Shown: positions 42,073 to 61,748 of the stretch, piece by piece
How the letters are laid out: each line of letters starts with the position of its first letter
How positions within the stretch are numbered: the first letter of the stretch is position 1
Assembly (NCBI GenBank): GCA_964405295.1
Contig: CAYONI010000002.1
Coordinates: 59,133-123,132, forward strand
Origin: an uncultured Methanosarcinales archaeon
GTDB taxonomy: Archaea > Nanobdellota > Nanobdellia > Woesearchaeales > CAYZNE01
Direction: 5' to 3'
DNA: 64,000 nucleotides
The notes under the pieces: generated by a model
Seen by the model: only the letters and a program-made list of their open reading frames with translations
Databases searched by the model: none
Told to the model about the DNA's origin: nothing
Position numbers and translations under genes: made by a program

Positions 42073-42112
42073 TTATCTGTATGGAAGTAAAATATCCCTC
42101 CCCCCAGACTTG
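42073..42112. repeat. 40-bp direct repeat, tRNA-proximal copy
   Basis: Spans the tRNA-Tyr T-loop to the discriminator base plus 22 nt of 3' flank. Confidence 0.8.
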
Positions 42113-42220
42113 AACCGGGGACCTTTCGGTTACGGCTGGTTATGTTTCATTTCTGTCCTTTCGGGTTAAGATCGCATAACTTCTACAGCCGAACGCTCTA
42201 GCCAACTGAGCTAGGGAGGG
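42095..42220 (-). tRNA. tRNA-Tyr(GTA) with 52-nt bulge-helix-bulge intron at 37/38
   Basis: Minus-strand cloverleaf read by eye. Acceptor CCCTCCC/GGGAGGG gives C1-G72, the archaeal Tyr identity element. D arm TAGCTCAGTTGGCTAGAGCG; anticodon loop CTGTAGA. The intron 3' end CAGCCG pairs with CGGCTG of the anticodon stem-loop. T arm CCCGGTTCAAGTCTGGG; CCA is not encoded. Confidence 0.8.
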
Positions 42221-48958: not shown

Positions 48959-49015
48959 TATTAGATTTTAGAGTGATTTATTTAAAAAGCTTATAGATTT
49001 TTGTTATGTTAAATT

Positions 49016-49202
49016 TAACATCAGGATTAAGAGAAGTTTCTGGAGCGAATTTGGGAAATTTCAGCAGGAAATTTCCTCTTAATTGCTGTTATGTGTTTTT
49101 TCTGCAAGAAAAAAAGCCGAAGGCTCAGTTATTTTCATGTTAATTAATTTCGTCTGAAGAGAGTCTATATATCCGAAGGACGAGGGGGAGTCCAGATTTT
49201 TT
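49016..49202 (+). repeat. structured intergenic repeat unit A (attC-like imperfect hairpin plus GC-rich 3' module)
   Basis: TTAACATCAGGATTAAGAGAAG ... CTCTTAATTGCTGTTATGT, then CCGAAGGACGAGGGGGAGTCC and an oligo-T; homologous to units B-F. Confidence 0.65.
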
Positions 49203-49240
49203 GTTTCTTTTATTAAAAAAAGAAAGTTTACACTAAGATA

Positions 49241-49320
49241 TTAGGGAGGGATTCGAACCCTCGAACCCACTAAGGGAGCAGATTGGTAATCTGCCGAGTT
49301 TGACCACTTCTCTACCCTCA
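49241..49320 (-). pseudogene. tRNA-like fragment (no valid acceptor stem)
   Basis: Minus strand has a D-arm-like segment and stem-loop GCAGA-TTACCAA-TCTGC. Its T arm GAGGGTTCGAATCCCTC shares a 17-mer TCGAGGGTTCGAATCCC with tRNA-Arg and an 11-mer ATCCCTCCCTA with tRNA-Tyr. The 5' and 3' ends cannot pair. Confidence 0.3.
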
Positions 49321-49348
49321 TATAAAATGTATGAGAATTAACTTGAGG

Positions 49349-49819
49349 TTATATTTTTTCTTCAAATAGTTCAATTAATAAATCATATACAGATTTGAAT
49401 TTTTTAAATCTTTTAGGTTCTTTAATTGATTTTTTTATAAACTCAATGTCCATTTCTTTTATTTTATTAATCATATCTCTACTTAAATTTGGTTTTTTAT
49501 CTTTGTATATTGGCCTGACTTTATGACATCCTAAGAAATCTTCAATTTCTTCTTCATTAAAATAAATAAATTTTTTAAGACCTTCCATTTCTGAGGTTAT
49601 AGTTTTCTCTTTTTTAAAAACATCTGAATCGAAAATAAATATAGTTTCGCTATCGATTCCCTTTAATTGTTGAAATTTTTCATCCATCTTTTGAGATTTA
49701 GTTATGGCATTATTTAAATCTCCTATTGCTTTAGGATGAAATTTTAATGTGTAATTACTGGATACAAATTTATTACCTTTTAAAGCCTTTAAAATAATTT
49801 TTTTCAGAAGGACCTTCAT
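49349..49819 (-). CDS. small partner protein of the AAA_21 ATPase (hypothetical)
   Basis: 156 aa, 20 bp downstream of the ATPase on the same strand; contains ETIFIFDSD acidic motif. Confidence 0.35.
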   Translation of the reverse strand: MKVLLKKIILKALKGNKFVSSNYTLKFHPKAIGDLNNAITKSQKMDEKFQQLKGIDSETIFIFDSDVFKKEKTITSEMEGLKKFIYFNEEEIEDFLGCHKVRPIYKDKKPNLSRDMINKIKEMDIEFIKKSIKEPKRFKKFKSVYDLLIELFEEKI

Positions 49820-49839
49820 AGAAAATGTAAATTACTTTT

Positions 49840-51045
49840 TTAATCTTCTTTATAGACATTTGGGAATCCTCCTAATACACCCTCTCTATAATAATCACCA
49901 TAGTTTTTGTTAATTTTGGGGTTATTCTTGACTATATTATGAAGATTAATTATTTTACTAACAGAATCTTCTTTTTCAATTATATTTATTTGATCACTTC
50001 TTAAATAATTAAGGATTTCTGGTTGATGAGTTGTAAATAATAATTGAGATTTATTGTCTTTTTTTGTAAAGTAATTTATAATAAATTCAACTATTTCAAT
50101 ATTAAAAGATGTTTCAATTTCATCATAAAGTATAATGGAATCCTTATTCAATTTGAATAGTGTGAAAAATAGTAATATGAACTTTTTAGTTCCACTTGAT
50201 TCTCCATTGAAATTTATTTTTAAATCTGCTTTATTGTGTTTATGTATTAAAATTAAATCTGTTACTGGCACTTTTTTTGTGGGTTGTTTTATAATTTCTT
50301 CATTATTTATTTTATATTCAATTTCTTCTCTAACTGATTTAACTAATTCTAAATCTTTTATCGAAAAATCAGCATATGTTAGAACATCTAATAATTCTTC
50401 CTTTAATCCTGAATCTTTTAACAAAGAGAAATCGGGGGGTTGATTAAATAAATTATTCGCTACAAATAGTTTAGTAAAAAAATCATATATTGGTTTTAAT
50501 GTGGCTGAGTTTAATTGCACCGCTCTTGATAACATTAAAGTTTGAGGAATGACACTTTTAGATAATATTTTTAATTCTTTTTCATATTTTCGATTGCTGA
50601 ATTCGAATTTTTTATTAGTTTTATTTTCGTTTCTTAAAAAAATTTCAGTCGGTTTTTGTGTTTGATAAACTACTGCATACTCTTTTATAATTTTTTTATT
50701 AGTATACGAGAATCCATAAATGTATTTTTTATTGTTTGAAAAAAATGTAATCTCAAATTCTGTTGGTTTATCTGGCGTGCTAATAAATGGTGAATATTTT
50801 ATATTTGTATCTATATTATGTTTTTGGGAATTTAAAACCATTTCTTTCATAAAATTTAATGCTGAAAGTAGAGATGTCTTTCCAGATCCATTAACTCCTA
50901 CGAGTCCAGATATTTTTAAAGTATCTATATTATTTTGCTGATTAATAAATTGTTCTCCTCTACTTTCTTTTGATTTTTTTTCAAATTTCAAAATTTCTTC
51001 ATTTTTATATGAATTAAAGTTTTTTAGTTTAAATTCGATTATCAT
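49840..51045 (-). CDS. AAA_21/AAA_15-type ABC-like ATPase (defence-associated family)
   Basis: Walker A GLVGVNGSGKTS, signature-like NGESSGTKKF, Walker B ILYDEIETS, H-loop LLFTTHQPE. Confidence 0.7.
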   Translation of the reverse strand: MIIEFKLKNFNSYKNEEILKFEKKSKESRGEQFINQQNNIDTLKISGLVGVNGSGKTSLLSALNFMKEMVLNSQKHNIDTNIKYSPFISTPDKPTEFEITFFSNNKKYIYGFSYTNKKIIKEYAVVYQTQKPTEIFLRNENKTNKKFEFSNRKYEKELKILSKSVIPQTLMLSRAVQLNSATLKPIYDFFTKLFVANNLFNQPPDFSLLKDSGLKEELLDVLTYADFSIKDLELVKSVREEIEYKINNEEIIKQPTKKVPVTDLILIHKHNKADLKINFNGESSGTKKFILLFFTLFKLNKDSIILYDEIETSFNIEIVEFIINYFTKKDNKSQLLFTTHQPEILNYLRSDQINIIEKEDSVSKIINLHNIVKNNPKINKNYGDYYREGVLGGFPNVYKED

Positions 51046-51261
51046 ATGGTTAAGAAATCAATCAATATATATAAATGTTGTTGTTTTTTACACTAATTTT
51101 GCTTTATCTTTTAGATATTGGCAGTAAATGAGAAAATATTGCAATTTTGTTGTGTTTCATAATTGATTTCGAATAAATTTATTGTGAGCCTAAATGTGTG
51201 TAGCACGGACTCTCCCTCTTTTGGTTCTTTTTCTAAAAGAACATAAAGTGAAAATTCGATT

Positions 51262-51433
51262 GAGTATAACATCGCGATTAAGAGAAGTTTTTGCGAAGCA
51301 AAAATTTGGATGGAAGAAACTGCAAGTTTCTGGAATCTCTTAATCGCTGTTATGTCTGTCGAAACTTGTTTCGACCAAGGGTTAGTGCAACGGTCGGCGA
51401 AGCCGAAACCCGCAGAGTTTTTCTTGAGTCCCG
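51262..51433 (+). repeat. structured intergenic repeat unit B
   Basis: GAGTATAACATCGCGATTAAGAGAAG pairs with TCTCTTAATCGCTGTTATGT (2-nt bulge). Internal hairpin TTTTTGCGAAGCAAAAA, then GTGCAACGG..GCGAAGCCGAAACCC, ending in TTTTTCTTGAGTCCC. Confidence 0.7.
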
Positions 51434-51468
51434 TTAAATATTTAAACTATTAAACTATATAGAGTTAT

Positions 51469-52251
51469 ATGGCAGATATATTATTAACAAATGATGATGG
51501 TTTCTCTTCCCAAGGATTTCTTGTTTTATTAAATGAATTAAAGAAAGAACATAAAGTAATAGGAGTTGCTCCTAAAAATGAACGAAGTTGGATTGGAAAA
51601 TCAATTAGTGCTCATAATGAAGTAATTTTAGAAAAAGTAAAGAGTAATCTTTATTCATTAACAGGAACTCCAGCAGATTGTACTCAGGTAGGAATCTATG
51701 ATGTTTTGAAGAGGAAACCTGATTTGGTTGTTTCAGGAATAAATTTAGGTTTAAATGCTGGACATGGTAGAATTTTAAGTTCAGGAACAATTGGTGCTGC
51801 AATGGAAGCTTCAATTGATGGAGTTAAATCAGTTTCAACTTCTATACATATTCCAATTGAATTGAAAAAAAGTTTAGATTTACATGATAAAAAAAATAGA
51901 AAAATATTCATTAATGCTGCAAAAATAACTTGTAAAGTGATTAAGATTTTTATGAATGCTGATTATGGAACTAGTACTGATCTTTTATCATTAAATATTC
52001 CTTTTGATGCAACAATCGATAGTCCAATTGAAATAACTGTTCCAGATAGACAACCATTAGGGCAGTTATTTTTCAAGAAAGGGAAATTTCACAAACTGAA
52101 GATTCCACCATTATTATTTGAATCTTCTTCAAAGGGAACAGATTTAAGAGCATTATATGAAAATAAAATATCCCTAACTCCTATTAGTTTAGAACTTGTA
52201 TCTAGAAATTCTTTAAAAAACCTTAAAACCATCATTAAAAAGAAGTGGTAG
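51469..52251 (+). CDS. surE: 5'/3'-nucleotidase SurE
   Basis: ILLTNDDGFSSQG N-terminus and overall SurE fold signature. Confidence 0.85.
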   Translation: MADILLTNDDGFSSQGFLVLLNELKKEHKVIGVAPKNERSWIGKSISAHNEVILEKVKSNLYSLTGTPADCTQVGIYDVLKRKPDLVVSGINLGLNAGHGRILSSGTIGAAMEASIDGVKSVSTSIHIPIELKKSLDLHDKKNRKIFINAAKITCKVIKIFMNADYGTSTDLLSLNIPFDATIDSPIEITVPDRQPLGQLFFKKGKFHKLKIPPLLFESSSKGTDLRALYENKISLTPISLELVSRNSLKNLKTIIKKKW

Positions 52252-52260
52252 GGACTCAAG

Positions 52261-52507
52261 AAAAATTAGACATAACATCAGGATTTGGAGAAGTCGTGCG
52301 TAGCACGATTTGGGTGGAGAAGTCTGCAAGACTTTGTAACCTCATAATCCTTGTTAAATCCTTCCGATAGGAACGAGGGATAACTGCAAGTGGTTTTTTG
52401 CGAAGCAAAAAAATCCTGAAGAGTAATATTTTCATTTCTATATCAATATTGAACAAAGCGAGTCTAAATGTCCTTTGGGACTGGGGCTGTTTGTTTTTTA
52501 TCAAAAT
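52261..52507 (+). repeat. structured intergenic repeat unit C
   Basis: Starts GGGACTCAAGAAAAA (inverted copy of unit B's end). CATAACATCAGGATT ... AATCCTTGTTAAAT stem, CTGCAAG boxes, hairpin TTTTTTGCGAAGCAAAAAAA; ends GGGGCTGTTTGTTTT. Confidence 0.7.
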
Positions 52508-52538
52508 CTTTTTATATATTAGATAACTCTTCAAGTTT

Positions 52539-53123
52539 ATGGTTGAATTTACAACAGAAAATCTTGGAAGAATACTTATTAATCGACTTAGAGAAAATAA
52601 TAATTTTGACGAAATATTATCAATAGTGAAAAGCAATTCCAGAGGGAATATTTATCTCGTTGGGGGAACTGTTAGTCGAACTTTAGCTAGTGAGTTATAT
52701 GGTGGAGAACAGAAAAATCAAGATTTTGATTTTGTTGTTGATGTATTAAATAGTGATTTAAAGATTCCAAAAGGTTGGGTGGTTACACACCATAAATTTG
52801 ACAATCCAACATTCAAGAAAGATGATCTTGAAATAGATCTATTTCCGTTATCTGACCACCAATATATCAAAAATAATAAACTGAAACCAACTATTGAAAA
52901 CTTTTTGGCAGGAGTTCCATTTTCAATTCAATCACTCGTTTTTGATATAAAAAATGAAAGATTAATTGGAGATGATGGAATTCAAGCTTTAAAGAATCGT
53001 AAATTCAAAGTTCATAACATAGATTCTGCAAAAGATGTTGCAAAACGTAAAGGAATTTCAATAAATGAACGAATGTTGCAAAAAGCTAAAAGTATGAACT
53101 TTGATATAATTCCATTCGATTAA
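52539..53123 (+). CDS. nucleotidyltransferase-fold (Pol beta superfamily) protein
   Basis: IYLVGGTVSR ... DFDFVVD resembles the hG[GS] ... DxD NTase motif. Confidence 0.4.
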   Translation: MVEFTTENLGRILINRLRENNNFDEILSIVKSNSRGNIYLVGGTVSRTLASELYGGEQKNQDFDFVVDVLNSDLKIPKGWVVTHHKFDNPTFKKDDLEIDLFPLSDHQYIKNNKLKPTIENFLAGVPFSIQSLVFDIKNERLIGDDGIQALKNRKFKVHNIDSAKDVAKRKGISINERMLQKAKSMNFDIIPFD

Positions 53124-53352
53124 AACAAACAGCCCCTTTTTCTAGAAATGAAAATTTTATTGTATATAACATCAGGATTAAGAGAAGTTTTTGCGTAGCA
53201 AAAATTTGGATGGAGCCTGCAAGGAGGAATCTCTAAATCCTTGTTAGTTGGGAAGACTGCAAGTCGACCGACCGAAGGGACAGTTTTTTAATTACTTAAC
53301 TTATATCAATTTCGAACGTAGTGAGTCTATTGTTTAGAAAAAGAGGGGTTTT
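53122..53352 (+). repeat. structured intergenic repeat unit D
   Basis: Starts AAAACAAACAGCCCC (inverted copy of unit C's end). TATAACATCAGGATTAAGAGAAG, hairpin TTTTTGCGTAGCAAAAA, AATCCTTGTTAGTT; ends AAAAAGAGGGGTTTT. Confidence 0.7.
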
Positions 53353-54067
53353 AATTTTTGCCTATATTCCACAACATTTTGAAATATTTTCTGAAAGTAT
53401 CTGCAAATTCTTTTCCATTAATCATTATTGAGATTATTTCGTTCTCATCAAGTTTTCCTATTATTAATTTGTTTTCATAAATTATAAATCCTACTGATGA
53501 AGAGAAATTTTCAGGAAGAAATTTATAATCAATCTTTGTGAAAAAATTTATTCGTTTAGATATTTCTTTTGTTTTTGGTTGAAGTAATTTTATATTCAAT
53601 TTTGAAAATTTATCCTGAATATATTTTGAAAATTTAAAACTTTCAACAAGATGTAAGCCACCACCAATCCAGTAAACTGTTTTATTGGTTTCGATTGCAT
53701 CTTCGAGAATTGTTTTTATTCCTTGTTTTCCCATTATAATATCAACTTTTGTATTATTGAAATTTGTATTTTGAAGGTTTTTGAGTGTGGGCATAATATT
53801 TTCTAAAGTAAATAATTTTTCATCAATTAATTGCCTTAAAGTTTTTACATTATTCGCATTAAAAAATTTAGTTCCCTTAATTATATTATATGTAACTAAT
53901 CCTTTAGTTATTAGAAGTTCTAAGTTATCATAAATAGTTCTTCTATTTATTCCTGTATTTTTTGAAAGTTTTACTGTGCTTTGTTGTGGAACTTTAAGTA
54001 ATGAGATATATATTTTTGATTCTATTTCTCTGAGACCAAGTTTTTTTAATTCGTTTTCTAGTTCCAT
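53351..54067 (-). CDS. TrmB-family transcriptional regulator
   Basis: N-terminal wHTH LGLREIESKIYISLLKVPQQSTVKLSKNTGINRRTIYDNLELLITKGLV. Confidence 0.7.
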   Translation of the reverse strand: MELENELKKLGLREIESKIYISLLKVPQQSTVKLSKNTGINRRTIYDNLELLITKGLVTYNIIKGTKFFNANNVKTLRQLIDEKLFTLENIMPTLKNLQNTNFNNTKVDIIMGKQGIKTILEDAIETNKTVYWIGGGLHLVESFKFSKYIQDKFSKLNIKLLQPKTKEISKRINFFTKIDYKFLPENFSSSVGFIIYENKLIIGKLDENEIISIMINGKEFADTFRKYFKMLWNIGKN

Positions 54068-54155
54068 GTTTATTTAGAATAGCTTTAAATATATAAAGTT
54101 TACGGGGGAATCCCCACACATTGATTTAAATTTGGTTATTAATTGCTACTTTTTA

Positions 54156-54818
54156 ATGGAAAAACATATATTATTTATGCCTGATGGAAATCGAAGATAT
54201 GCGACAAGAGAAAATATTTCTCCGGAAAAAACTTATCAAAAAGGAGCTAAATCATTAGAATTATTTAGCAATTTCTTTCTACTGGAAAATGATTGGACTC
54301 AATTAACCATGCATTTTATGTCAAAATATACCCATGAAAGAGATGATGGAAGTTTAAATCCAATCTATGGTGCTATGATAAAAGAATTTACTTATTTGCA
54401 CGATAGTAGTTATTTTGATAAAAATAAGATTAAATTTCAATGGATTGATCATTCAAGTAAATTGCCTGCTGAGGTTGTGGAAATTTGTCAATCATTAGAA
54501 GAAAAGACAAAAACCGGAGTTAAATTATCTTTAAATTTATTAGGCTATGATTTAGAAACTGACGAAAGAAATGCTTTTGAACAATCAAAGAATTATGATG
54601 AGTTTAAAGCTATTAGACTAATTTCAGATATAGATTTAGTAATTAGAACTACTGAAATGAGACCTTCAAAAGGCCCAGTTTATGCAATGGCTCAATCTCA
54701 AATGTTACTTCTTCAAAAATTAAATCCTGAATTAGAACGTACTGATTTAGAGAAGATATTGCAAGAATATAATAGTTTAGTGGAATATAGGCAAACCACA
54801 AATCCAATTCATAAATAA
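54156..54818 (+). CDS. divergent cis-prenyltransferase (UppS-like) paralog
   Basis: FMPDGNRRYATRE matches the cis-IPTase DGNRR(Y/W)A motif and an IRTT segment is retained, but the C-terminal substrate motifs are degenerate. ATG at 54156 preferred. Confidence 0.5.
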   Translation: MEKHILFMPDGNRRYATRENISPEKTYQKGAKSLELFSNFFLLENDWTQLTMHFMSKYTHERDDGSLNPIYGAMIKEFTYLHDSSYFDKNKIKFQWIDHSSKLPAEVVEICQSLEEKTKTGVKLSLNLLGYDLETDERNAFEQSKNYDEFKAIRLISDIDLVIRTTEMRPSKGPVYAMAQSQMLLLQKLNPELERTDLEKILQEYNSLVEYRQTTNPIHK

Positions 54819-55080
54819 AACCTCTCTTTTTCTTTTGTTAAGTAATTAAGAAATTGCAACTAACATCGGGCTTAAGGGAAGTTCAATTTCCTCGGAAAAA
54901 TTCTCCTCGTGAAACAGAGCTGAGAATTTTTTCAGAGCTGAAATTGAATTTGGGTGTAGTGAGGTGCAACCGAACGAAACCCTTTAAGCCCTATTAGTTT
55001 CGTCCGAATACTTGGAGGACTTGATTTTTAGTGCAACGATGCCGAAGGCAAAAAATCAAAGTCGTGTAGGGGCAAAATTA
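54817..55080 (+). repeat. structured intergenic repeat unit E
   Basis: CTAACATCGGGCTTAAGGGAAG pairs with CCTTTAAGCCCTATTAG (compensatory GGGCTT/AAGCCC relative to AGGATT/AATCCT in other units). GTGCAACCGAACG and GTGCAACGATGCCGAAGG modules; ends GGGGCAAAATTA. Confidence 0.65.
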
Positions 55081-55116
55081 GGAAGGTTTATAAAATACCT
55101 TTAATTCCACTAAATT

Positions 55117-55425
55117 ATGAGAATAGATTATCAACATAACTTGACACAAGAAGAAGCATACGGAAAAATAAATAATCTTTTAACAGATTTACAGAAACAG
55201 TATGCTGATAAAATAAGTAACCCTCAAACAAGTTGGAATTCCGAACATACAAGAATGGATTATAGTATGGAAATTATGGGATTCAAAACTAAAGGACAGG
55301 TTACTTTAAATGATAGTCAAGTTAGTTTAGAAGGAAAACTTCCATTCATGGCTAAAATGTTTAGTGGAAAAATTGAAGCAATGGTTAAAACACAACTAGA
55401 TGATTTACTTGCTTGTGATTTCTGA
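55117..55425 (+). CDS. PHA_gran_rgn-like small protein (polyhydroxyalkanoic-acid-system family)
   Basis: C-terminal VSLEGKLPFMAKMFSGKIEAMVKTQLDDLL resembles the family's conserved tail. Confidence 0.4.
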   Translation: MRIDYQHNLTQEEAYGKINNLLTDLQKQYADKISNPQTSWNSEHTRMDYSMEIMGFKTKGQVTLNDSQVSLEGKLPFMAKMFSGKIEAMVKTQLDDLLACDF

Positions 55426-55433
55426 ATATAATT

Positions 55434-55490
55434 TAATTTTGCCCCGTAACGATTGAGTATAACATATATTAGGCCTAGTTTGTTAGTGCC
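55434..55490 (+). repeat. mini repeat unit F
   Basis: TAATTTTGCCCC (inverted copy of unit E's end), then GAGTATAACAT ... TAGGCCTA ... TTGTTAG hairpin. Confidence 0.5.
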
Positions 55491-55512
55491 TAATTATAGT
55501 TAATATATGCTA

Positions 55513-55575: not shown

Positions 55576-56412
55576 ATGGATTATATGTTAGATGAAGCTA
55601 AAAAACAGGATTATCTGCAGAGAATTGCTGATGAGTGTAAATTAAGGGGTTTTAGCAGGCAAACTTTGAAAGCTTATTCTTATTGGATTGCAAAATATTT
55701 GGATTTTATTATTAAAAATAGGTTTAATTTGGGAAATTCTAGTGTTAGGTATTATTTCCTAAGTTTAGATTTGAGTGTGAATTCTTCAAGATTATGCTAT
55801 GCAGCTCTAAGATTTTTCTTCGCTAATATTCTGAACAGACCTTTTACAACCGATGAAATTCCTATTAAGAAGAAAGAAAAAACTTTGCCTAAAGTATTAT
55901 CTAAGCAACAAATTAAATTAATATTAAATGAAACCAAAAATCTTAAACATAAACTAGTTATTGAGGTGCTTTATTCAACTGGGTTGAGATTGCAAGAATT
56001 AATTAATCTTAAAAGAGCTGATATTGATTTTGATAATAATACTTTGTTTGTTAGAAAAGGCAAAGGTAAGAAGGATAGACTCACAATTATTTCTGAAAAT
56101 ATTAAATTAGATTTATTAAAATATTATAGTCAATACGAATTTAAAACAAATTATGTGTTTGAAGGTAGAAAGGGTAAATATTCTAAAAAGTCTGTTCAAT
56201 TAATTCTACACAATACAAGTAAAAAACTTAAATTTAGAATTCATCCTCATATGTTAAGACACTCTTTTGCAACTCATTTATTAGAGCAGGGAACTGACAT
56301 AAGAATTATACAGAAGCTTCTTGGCCATTCTGATCTTAACACAACAGAAATTTACACAAGAGTTGCAAATAAGAATTTAAAGAAAATCAAGAATCCTCTA
56401 GATAGTATTTAA
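55576..56412 (+). CDS. tyrosine recombinase (XerA/XerC/D family)
   Basis: C-terminal catalytic region HPHMLRHSFATHLLEQGTDIRIIQKLLGHSDLNTTEIYTRV (R..H..R..Y); N-terminal core-binding domain. Confidence 0.85.
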   Translation: MDYMLDEAKKQDYLQRIADECKLRGFSRQTLKAYSYWIAKYLDFIIKNRFNLGNSSVRYYFLSLDLSVNSSRLCYAALRFFFANILNRPFTTDEIPIKKKEKTLPKVLSKQQIKLILNETKNLKHKLVIEVLYSTGLRLQELINLKRADIDFDNNTLFVRKGKGKKDRLTIISENIKLDLLKYYSQYEFKTNYVFEGRKGKYSKKSVQLILHNTSKKLKFRIHPHMLRHSFATHLLEQGTDIRIIQKLLGHSDLNTTEIYTRVANKNLKKIKNPLDSI

Positions 56413-60770: not shown

Positions 60771-61748
60771 TTAATGCTCCAAAATTTTCAATTCTACTTT
60801 GTCATCAACTTTCAGACTTACAGTTCCTCCAATGGGAAATGTCATTATAGGGTTTGCATGACCAAAATTAACATTTGCAATCACAGGAATATCTGCTAAC
60901 TCTTTTTTTGTTGCAATGATTTTTTCGATTTTTTCTTCAGTCATTTCAGAATTCTTTTGAAACATTCCAATAATAATAGCTTTAACATCTTTAAAGTCAG
61001 GAAGGTGAATTAAAGATTGTAAATTTCTATCAAAATCTGGTGCTTTTGATTCATCATCATCTTCAACAAACAAAATCTTGTCTTTTAATGAAGGCATAAA
61101 TTCAGTTCCCTGTAATAAGTTCAGAGTACAAAGGTTTCCTCCAACAATTTCTCCTTGGGCTTCTCCTTTGTTAATTATTAAATAACCTTTATTTGGAATA
61201 AGATTTCTATTTTCTTGATTCATATACCACGCATCATCACTCCAAGTTGGAGAAGGTTTAATAACAAATTCTTCTTTGCTTGTTAAACATTTTTTGAAAT
61301 ATTCTAGTGTATATTCAAACTCCCTTTTCATTCCCCAGGTAGAGAAATGTGGCCCATAATATGTAATTAGGCCTGTCTTTGCTGTAATAGCATTTGTGAG
61401 TGCAGTTATATCTGAGTAACCACAGATAATTTTAGGGTTATTTTTTATTAATTTATAATCTAAGTATTTTAATACTTGATTTACATTAAATCCTCCGATA
61501 ACAGTTAGAATTGCTTTAACATTTTTATCTCTAAATGCTTCATGTAGATCATCAACTCTAGATTGAATAGATGAAGACATAAACATGTCAGACTCTTTGC
61601 AGTTTTTTGAGAATGTAACTTTGAAACCTTCTGCTTCAAGTTTATCTACTGCTAATTTAATATTTTCTTCAGAAAGCAAAGCTAAACTTCTAGATGGGGC
61701 AATAATTCTGATTTCATCTCCTGGTTGTAGTTTTGGTGGAATTATCAT
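60771..61748 (-). CDS. LD-carboxypeptidase (peptidase S66, LdcA/MccF-like)
   Basis: N-terminus LQPGDEIRIIAPSRS and overall S66 architecture. Confidence 0.7.
   Translation of the reverse strand: MIIPPKLQPGDEIRIIAPSRSLALLSEENIKLAVDKLEAEGFKVTFSKNCKESDMFMSSSIQSRVDDLHEAFRDKNVKAILTVIGGFNVNQVLKYLDYKLIKNNPKIICGYSDITALTNAITAKTGLITYYGPHFSTWGMKREFEYTLEYFKKCLTSKEEFVIKPSPTWSDDAWYMNQENRNLIPNKGYLIINKGEAQGEIVGGNLCTLNLLQGTEFMPSLKDKILFVEDDDESKAPDFDRNLQSLIHLPDFKDVKAIIIGMFQKNSEMTEEKIEKIIATKKELADIPVIANVNFGHANPIMTFPIGGTVSLKVDDKVELKILEH

Follow-up and report, generated by a model that had tools for sequence, protein, structure and literature searches.

In integrons, short accessory-gene cassettes, some of them without an open reading frame (ORF), are arrayed between imperfect hairpin recombination sites (attC), and a tyrosine recombinase is encoded at one end of the array beside a distinct insertion site (attI). 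The attC hairpins carry inverse-core and core motifs, bulged bases and a variable, covarying stem. Because crossover takes place within the R-box stem, a cassette begins with 6 nt (TTRRRY) that can pair with the inverse core close to its own 3' end. Integrated cassettes are bounded by GTTRRRY cores, and the site is defined as RYYYAAC/GTTRRRY (PMC3053210). Here we describe a locus of this general design in a 64,000-nt stretch of archaeal contig CAYONI010000002.1, referred to throughout as the window. The region at 49.0–56.4 kb of the window is probably an integron-like array that is closed by a short variant hairpin and a gene for a XerA-type tyrosine recombinase. Its cassettes are bracketed by inverted repeats, which an earlier note on this DNA had described as five pairs lying exactly at gene boundaries. 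The arms of these repeats are real, cassette-specific, nested and contiguous with the core motif, and the units that separate the cassettes are hairpins with covarying stems. We consider it likely that the two arms are the split halves of the lower hairpin stem of the cassette's own recombination site, parted by integration.

The array shares with integrons its short accessory-gene cassettes (ORF-less ones included), its imperfect hairpins with inverse-core and core motifs (here TAAC and GTTA), bulged bases and a variable, covarying stem, its tyrosine recombinase gene at one end beside a distinct insertion site, and a crossover that is probably placed inside the R-box stem. When the + strand is equated with the integron bottom strand, the layouts also agree in the position of AAC on the 5' arm, in the position of the recombinase gene and in an excess of about 2:1 of ORFs on the opposite strand (109 minus versus 56 plus, relative to the units). 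In other respects the two systems differ. Complementarity below the crossover is 6 bp in integrons, whereas here it spans tens of bp, is nested and is specific to the cassette. The predicted site is multi-branched, 250–330 nt long and furnished with leader hairpins, and the units are far more conserved in sequence than typical attCs. The bulge is on the same arm as the AAC motif, and the recombinase lacks the insert specific to integron integrases (IntI). Finally, instead of promoterless, co-oriented cassettes expressed from Pc, the array has cargo of mixed orientation with what appear to be promoters of its own: TATA-like boxes, read by eye, are found inside the cassettes 25–30 nt upstream of ATG codons.

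Clusters of attC sites have been reported from archaeal metagenome-assembled genomes, among them Pacearchaeales and Woesearchaeales with 2–4 attCs and no IntI (Ghaly et al. 2022, PMC9668308). These clusters of attC sites lacking integrases (CALINs) may belong to the same family as the present arrays. The IntIs that the study reports have the IntI-specific domain, in contrast to the recombinase here, and the sections and supplements covered mention no XerA-type partner and no extended complementarity of cassette ends. In the wider literature, too, our searches brought up no account of cassette arrays associated with Xer in DPANN archaea, nor of cassette ends with extended complementarity. Xer-family recombinases also serve integrative mobile elements exploiting Xer recombination (IMEX) such as CTX-phi, which integrates at dif and builds tandem arrays by successive integrations at the chromosomal site. 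A further likeness lies in the folded single-stranded hairpin that mimics a duplex site and, by analogy only, in the exchange of one strand. IMEX, however, are the genomes of phages or plasmids, several kb in size and equipped for replication, and complementarity bracketing the cargo has not been described for them; the cassettes in the window are not such genomes, being 0.4–2.2 kb long with one to three genes each and no replication genes among them. A search of IMG/VR with the unit pattern gave seven matches, all attributable to chance and none confirmed by the unit profile. In Acinetobacter, pdif modules (PMC6449649, PMC11705084) are likewise genes set between inverted repeats, and Xer recombinases are presumed to move them. 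The pdif brackets are conserved 28-bp XerC/D sites in alternating orientation, whereas in the present array the brackets are cassette-specific and the conserved units are all direct.

The interval 49016–55502 is made up of six hairpin units in direct orientation (U0–U5), which separate five accessory-gene cassettes. The units and the recombinase gene are as follows:

49016–49091, + strand: U0, attC-like hairpin, core TAAC to GTTA
51267–51352, + strand: U1, hairpin with R box TAACA/TGTTA, TC bulge and L stem GCGATTAAGAG/CTCTTAATCGC
52273–52356, + strand: U2, hairpin
53167–53246, + strand: U3, hairpin
54861–54996, + strand: U4, hairpin with a long loop insert and compensatory L-stem changes (GGGCTTAAG/CTTAAGCCC)
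55460–55502, + strand: U5, short variant hairpin TAACATATATTAGGC...GCCTAATTATAGTTA, adjoining the recombinase gene
55576–56412, + strand: XerA-type tyrosine recombinase of 278 aa, directly 3' of U5

Units U0–U4 are about 80–135 nt long and U5 is shorter. A metagenome scan with the unit pattern found at least 120 contigs (loci with L numbers below are among the matches listed), and a profile built from the scan matches recognized at least 265 units, many of them in arrays. In an alignment of 41 non-redundant units from many contigs, the 5-bp R box TAACA/TGTTA and the 2-nt TC bulge are invariant, while the 11-bp L stem shows compensatory changes at 6 of its 11 pairs. The units thus have the makeup by which attC sites are recognized, namely an imperfect hairpin with inverse-core and core motifs, bulges and a stem conserved in structure. 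Units and the leaders that follow them are densely set with C-GNA-G triloop mini-hairpins (TTTTTGCGAAGCAAAAA, GCGAAGC, GCGTAGC, CCGAAGG), for example at 51288–51304, 52395–52411 and 53188–53204. Mini-hairpins of this type are exceptionally stable in single-stranded DNA, and because so many of them are present, DNA folding is favored over RNA folding.

The recombinase belongs to the Xer family. It is colinear from end to end with Pyrococcus abyssi XerA (4a8e; 1e-47), and its best NCBIfam model is that of archaeal XerA (217 bits, cutoff 220). Models of integron integrases match it in two pieces only and below their cutoffs. Against VchIntIA (2a3v), only residues 13–176 and 221–276 can be aligned, and the 44 query residues between them stand opposite 89 in IntIA; the IntI-specific insert is therefore missing, and with it the extra domain around patch III that defines an integron integrase. 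The gene lies 3' of the units and on the same strand in 15 of 15 loci, where its homologues are 37–88% identical, and several of the other loci (L050 and L044, for example) have a short TAAC...GTTA hairpin upstream of it. As in integrons, then, the recombinase gene is found at the insertion end of the array, and U5 is an attI-like insertion site. P. abyssi XerA has been reported to bind stem-loop structures, and a dif site consists of two 11-nt inverted arms around a 6-nt spacer (review, PMC8371274). No duplex dif-like site of this 11-6-11 form was recognized by eye at U5 or in the unit stems, no formal search having been made.

The arms that bracket the cargo in the window, together with the short extensions that adjoin the cores of cassette 2, are listed here in the order of the cassettes:

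49182–49193: cassette 1, left arm GAGGGGGAGTCC, part of a conserved leader element and weak alone
51207–51218: cassette 1, right arm GGACTCTCCCTC, 11/12, the single mismatch being G.T on the + strand
51353–51357: cassette 2, 3' extension TGTCT, directly 3' of the GTTA of U1, pairing with AGACA at 52268–52272
51418–51432: cassette 2, left arm TTTTTCTTGAGTCCC
52251–52265: cassette 2, right arm GGGACTCAAGAAAAA, 15/15
52268–52272: cassette 2, 5' extension AGACA, directly 5' of the TAAC of U2
52428–52440: cassette 3, outer left arm ATTTTCATTTCTA
52483–52497: cassette 3, inner left arm GGGGCTGTTTGTTTT
53122–53136: cassette 3, inner right arm AAAACAAACAGCCCC, 15/15
53143–53155: cassette 3, outer right arm TAGAAATGAAAAT, 13/13
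53288–53300: cassette 4, outer left arm TTAATTACTTAAC
53338–53352: cassette 4, middle left arm AAAAAGAGGGGTTTT
53357–53372: cassette 4, inner left arm TTTGCCTATATTCCAC, within the last codons of the TrmB-like ORF
54780–54795: cassette 4, inner right arm GTGGAATATAGGCAAA, 16/16, within the last codons of the UppS-like ORF
54817–54831: cassette 4, middle right arm AAAACCTCTCTTTTT, 14/15, the mismatch being G.T on the + strand
54837–54849: cassette 4, outer right arm GTTAAGTAATTAA, 13/13
55069–55080: cassette 5, left arm GGGGCAAAATTA
55434–55445: cassette 5, right arm TAATTTTGCCCC, 12/12

All ten arms of the earlier note are present in this list, but three of them had been misplaced by 1–10 nt. 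Its first, fourth and fifth pairs (11/12, 14/15 and 12/12) stand where it had put them. The second pair is indeed 15/15, with arms that had been given 1 and 10 nt away from their true sites; in the third, also 15/15, the right arm was correctly located and the left arm was 10 nt off. The outer pair of cassette 3 (13/13) and the outer (13/13) and inner (16/16) pairs of cassette 4 come in addition to the original five. When every left zone in the window was scored against every right zone, the diagonal of the five-by-five matrix read 9, 15, 15, 16 and 12, with an off-diagonal maximum of 12. Pairs 2–5 stand out in this comparison, although the 12 of pair 5 merely equals the off-diagonal maximum, and pair 1 alone is not above background. 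The leader element that contains the left arm of cassette 1 is also found in L004, L077, L097 and L136, and the copy of this arm in L077 is matched by a perfect partner of 14 nt. The inner arms of cassette 4 are read in different frames in the two ORF ends, so that the idea of a C-terminal peptide shared by the two proteins was rejected.

Two further observations were made on the sequence around the arms. A conserved element of 'type A' (..TTTCGAnCGTAGnGAGTCTAnnnGTCCGAAGGACT) lies between outer and inner left arms at 52441–52482 and 53301–53335, as well as at 49140–49181, and is also seen in other contigs. A 14/15 inverted repeat spans U4, with one arm at 55104–55118, upstream of the ATG of the PHA-like gene, and the other at 54772–54786, within the 3'-terminal part of the UppS-like ORF and overlapping with the inner right arm of cassette 4; the repeat could be a chance match.

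Across the family, the first 200 nt of each inter-unit segment were compared with its last 100 nt and the best ungapped inverted-repeat score was recorded for 127 distinct segments from unrelated contigs among the matches listed. The median score within a cassette was 13, and 68% of the segments scored at least 12. In 499 pairings of mismatched left and right zones the median was 8, only 0.8% reached 12 and the maximum was 13. Pairing the right zone of a cassette with the left zone of the next one, that is, across a single unit, gave the same null-like result (median 8, 2% at 12 or more). The repeats therefore bracket the cargo and not the unit, and the test together with its across-unit control excludes chance as well as units that have jumped into palindromes. 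The contention that the repeats could not be chance is thus borne out for pairs 2–5 and for the family, while pair 1 does not carry it by itself.

Gapped alignments revealed that outer and inner pairs are nested at fixed places. The outer right arm abuts the next unit, and the outer left arm lies about 55–60 nt past GTTA, beyond one or two small leader hairpins; the inner pair often adjoins the genes, and an extra hairpin element may lie between the outer and inner left arms. The window conforms to this plan, with outer and inner pairs in cassette 3 and three nested pairs in cassette 4. Relative to the nearest ORF end, the strongest arms have a median position of -2 nt on the left and +9 nt on the right across the family, and 44% of left arms and 26% of right arms overlap an ORF end. 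The placement at gene boundaries is therefore approximate rather than exact, and the arms often enter the ORFs. Many arms share a (A)GGGGC.../...GCCCC(T) edge. Arms are also kept by ORF-less cassettes of about 100–114 nt (L097 682–785 and 894–995; L107 10714–10827 and 10966–11079), in which short arms surround an A-rich spacer so that the two stem halves lie close together; those of L107 contain the perfect palindrome GGGGGATATCCCCC.

Complementarity between the cassette ends is already evident at the conserved cores. Bases 5' of the TAAC of a unit were paired with those 3' of the GTTA of the preceding unit, and the mean Watson-Crick run was 3.2, with runs of at least 4 in 60% of cases (n=87). 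The corresponding control values were 0.87 and 8% for the two flanks of the same unit, 0.82 and 7% for the next unit, and 0.74 and 5% for random pairings (P ~1e-16 to 1e-26). Cassette-specific complementarity therefore starts at the conserved core and runs outward from it. In a circularized cassette this complementarity extends the unit hairpin downward. When the circular junctions predicted for cassettes 2–5 were folded as DNA, they showed a closing stem under the R box and the leader hairpins as side branches, with energies of -52 to -59 kcal/mol, and the basal stem ran almost directly into the unit hairpin (with a 1-nt bulge in cassette 2).

Non-Watson-Crick pairs indicate which strand folds. 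On the + strand, the unit stems of the 41-unit alignment contain 19–20 G.T pairs versus 2 A.C pairs. A stringent count of isolated mismatches in long arms gave 9 G.T versus 1 A.C on the same strand (p=0.02). A looser count with loose extension gave 32 versus 40, which is not significant, because random AT-rich flanks swamped the signal. The excess of G.T on the + strand argues that this strand folds and that the arms pair on the same strand as the unit, and the asymmetry in the arms points to pairing within a single strand rather than to recombination between duplexes.

The limits of a cassette were located by comparing related loci. L019 and L118 contain orthologous cassettes (89% identical) that share a block from the TAAC of the upstream unit to the next TAAC, and their extensions have changed together, AAT/ATT in one versus GTTG/CAAC in the other. 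Near-identical units from different contigs made up 212 pairs, of which 13% were also similar over the 60 nt downstream and at most 1% over the 60 nt upstream. On these comparisons the cassette order along the + strand reads as unit, leader, cargo. The opposite arrangement, with an attC following its gene and crossover at G|TT of R' on the + strand, was rejected, since units are linked downstream and not upstream and since it is the + strand that folds. As in integrons, cassette boundaries fall at the core, and the start of the cassette is complementary to the inverse core at its own end. L069 and L071 have cargo and leader in common at 90–95% identity, in an internal cassette of L069 and in the recombinase-proximal cassette of L071. 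Their outer arms have been replaced on both sides in a compensatory, patch-like manner (14/15 in L071, 11/15 in L069). A tandem duplication in L061 gave no information on breakpoints.

These observations suggest the following scheme. Each cassette would begin at the GTTA core of a unit and end at the TAAC core of the unit that follows, with ends that are complementary to each other. Outward from the core, the complementarity would be organized in nested blocks: an extension of 3–10 bp, an outer pair of 12–16 bp and often an inner pair of 12–16 bp by the genes, with the small leader hairpins bulging out on the 3' side. In a circular cassette, or in a folded + strand with its cargo looped out, the blocks would zip into a basal stem under the unit hairpin, and the resulting multi-branched single-stranded DNA would be the site described above. 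Strand exchange at the core, probably at TAA|C on the + strand as the counterpart of G|TT in the integron attC, would linearize the circle inside the stem, and the halves of the lower stem would then land at opposite ends of the cassette, where they are seen as a bracketing inverted repeat. Because this stem extends tens of bp below the crossover and is specific to the cassette, integration leaves a conspicuous inverted repeat around the genes. With excision both arms would be lost and a single unit, not a 30-bp palindrome, would stay behind; the circle junction predicted for cassette 2 is ...GGGACTCAAGAAAAATTAGACATAA|CATCGCGATTAAGAG.... The basal stem likely has one or more of three roles, namely to nucleate or insulate the folding of an AT-rich site, to loop out the cargo, and to join the flanking units for excision. 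The suggestion in the earlier note that the arms are halves of one palindromic element parted by a recombination event is retained in this scheme. What assigns the arms to the cassette's own hairpin site is that they travel with the cargo, differ between cassettes and begin at TAAC and GTTA.

Several observations do not sit easily with this scheme. The recombinase is without the insert that integron integrases need for attC recognition. Inverted repeats scoring 12 or more are absent from 32% of cassettes, and none is present in the L006 array. In the assemblies of the organism, all with an identical array, the window cassettes show no circular junction, no deletion allele and no other position, and a genomic-context look-up with SurE, the 194-aa protein and the PHA-like protein gave the same array order or single-gene fragments in every assembly, with no evidence of mobility. 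As far as the present analysis reaches, nothing shows that kilobase-scale single-stranded DNA arises in these archaea. Modules of unit plus leader recur at 91–97% identity with unrelated cargo on both sides, and their homology ends at the outer left arm; U1 with its leader, for instance, is 92.7% identical to L111 and 91% to L103, and U4 with its leader is 93.5% identical to L129. Such recurrence is not predicted by a single TAA|C crossover. The upstream units of L069 and L071 also differ despite the shared leader and cargo. Lastly, the arms are mostly perfect and sharp-edged, and some are inside ORF ends in different frames, which fits templated copying better than slow selection for pairing.

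It is accordingly conceivable, though we hold it only tentatively, that the arms are written by templated copying when a module of unit plus leader captures new cargo. Besides the perfection, sharp edges and intragenic position of arms, copying is hinted at by arms and extensions that have been replaced patch by patch (the arms of L069/L071 and the extensions of L019/L118) and by the identical modules on unrelated cargo. Such copying could proceed by gene conversion within a strand, by repair of the folded stem or by synthesis primed from a hairpin. Alternatively, the arms may have been inherited from ORF-less progenitor cassettes such as those of L097 and L107.

The split-stem reading also has to be set against other explanations of the bracketing arms. 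In the one closest to the earlier note, a resident, position-specific palindrome resembling a bidirectional terminator would have received a gene at its center, so that cargo moves while arms stay. The ORF-less cassettes are the nearest thing to the empty site that the note envisaged, and their close stem halves, together with the perfect palindrome of L107, are what this explanation expects; so are the unit-plus-leader modules that are common to arrays with different cargo and stop at the outer left arm, the different outer arms around the same cargo in L069 and L071, and the edge motif shared by many arms. In L019 and L118, however, the arms move with the cargo, complementarity begins at the recombination core and not at a separate site, and arms differ between cassettes, the inner ones being cargo-specific and able to lie inside ORFs. 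Empty versions of the window palindromes were looked for in a narrow search and not found: CTTGAGTCCCGGGACTCAAG is absent from 142 loci, and the 30-mer of cassette 3 is absent from IMG/VR. We also know of no enzyme that inserts DNA at the center of arbitrary palindromes. As an account of the present arrangement the resident palindrome is thus improbable, but the idea of a gene entering a palindrome may describe the birth of cassettes, by insertion into the loop of an ORF-less cassette. A related explanation takes the units as mobile repeat modules of about 230 bp, resembling miniature inverted-repeat transposable elements and scattered among ordinary chromosomal genes, with the inverted repeats incidental or due to chance. 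Modules more than 90% identical do occur in other contigs with different neighbors, some of the cargo looks like housekeeping genes (SurE, UppS-like), and a peptidase_S66 gene is cargo in L129 while it is located outside the array in the window. Insertion of modules into palindromes would place the two halves around the module, though, where pairing is at the null level; every array is tight, ends at the recombinase gene and has its modules in direct orientation throughout; and chance is excluded by the 127-segment and flank-pairing tests. Of all the explanations considered, we give this one the least credence.

Inverted repeats around a segment, cargo ORFs in both orientations relative to the units and an adjacent tyrosine recombinase also make up the classic layout of invertible segments, in which the arms would be sites or short homologies that flip the cargo as in shufflons or phase-variation switches. 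This second proposal of the earlier note is not supported. All assemblies of the organism agree in gene order and orientation, and neither the conserved inverted sites nor the two coexisting orientations of a shufflon are seen at the assembly level. Since the arms are different in every cassette, they are not binding sites for one recombinase; since the TATA-like boxes (by eye) of + strand genes lie inside the arms, flipping would not switch expression. The G.T versus A.C asymmetry indicates pairing within a strand, and complementarity contiguous with the core is not something that flipping requires. Inversion is accordingly very improbable. Slightly less so, but still quite unlikely, is a function in RNA, with the arms acting in a + strand transcript as long-range processing or stabilizing stems, as in rRNA, or as terminator halves. 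The wobble asymmetry would also be expected from G.U pairs in such an RNA, T-runs follow many right arms, and right arms are found just past stop codons. On the other hand, about two thirds of the cargo ORFs are antisense to the + strand, and left arms fall outside the mRNA of + strand genes because they are upstream of the TATA-like boxes (again by eye). The arms are perfect and have no bulge-helix-bulge motif, and the mini-hairpins are of the C-GNA-G type that DNA favors. The stems are contiguous with a recombination core beside a recombinase gene, and cassette content turns over between close relatives (the array differs in L004). Apart from tRNAs, no Rfam family matched anywhere in the window. 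We agree with the earlier note that the arms are not shared terminators.

The cassette boundaries, polarity and folding strand have been located for a large and widespread family of integron-like arrays (at least 120 contigs), which is hosted by AT-rich archaea that are probably DPANN and has so far at most been catalogued as integrase-less attC clusters. On the split-stem reading, long basal stems that are specific to the cargo would be possible beneath a recombination hairpin, and the constant partner of such a hairpin would be a XerA-type enzyme that lacks the IntI insert; both are relevant to the evolution of integrons from Xer systems. Cassettes can also be delimited by the complementarity of their ends, a signature that is simple to compute. 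Should the arms be products of copying, they would give a way into the unsolved problem of how new cassettes arise. They would then be a molecular scar left from the birth of the cassette, with a Xer-type recombinase performing the task of an integron integrase, and the system would be an evolutionary intermediate between Xer/dif-IMEX and integrons.

The cargo of the array is accessory in character, as it is across the loci (AbiLi-like ATPase, GNAT, methyltransferases, CYTH and many unknowns):

Cassette 1: AbiLi-like ATPase, partner protein and tRNA-like gene
49237–49322: tRNA-like gene of cassette 1, 86 nt; Rfam 38.8 bits; tRNA-Gly(acc) according to ARAGORN
49349–51045: AbiLi-like AAA ATPase and 156-aa partner of cassette 1; PADLOC 1.5e-62
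Cassette 2: SurE
Cassette 3: 194-aa protein, function unassigned
Cassette 4: TrmB-like regulator and UppS-like protein, divergent ORFs
Cassette 5: PHA-granule-like protein

The ATPase and its partner in cassette 1 are probably an abortive-infection defense pair. An element composed of a T-run and a small hairpin (TTTTTGTTTCTTTT..AAAAGAA) occurs in direct orientation 3' of both arms of this cassette (49194–49226 and 51219–51242) and in other arrays as well (L004, L074, L082 and L097); it may be a bidirectional archaeal terminator. A scan for bacterial promoters and terminators gave background levels only, its bacterial models being uninformative for an archaeal host. Positions 49007–49020, on the far border of the array, form a perfect palindrome of 14 bp, TGTTAAATTTAACA, where the TAACA of U0 is immediately preceded by an R'-like TGTTA; the arrangement resembles a zero-length cassette or the scar of a junction. 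The peptidase_S66 gene that is cassette cargo in L129 (9901–11066) and is found outside the array in the window (60783–61748) is 73% identical in nucleotide sequence between the two, and it is possibly a chromosomal gene that was captured as a cassette. Elsewhere in the window, a 126-nt tRNA match at 42095–42220 implies a long intron, which fits an archaeal host.

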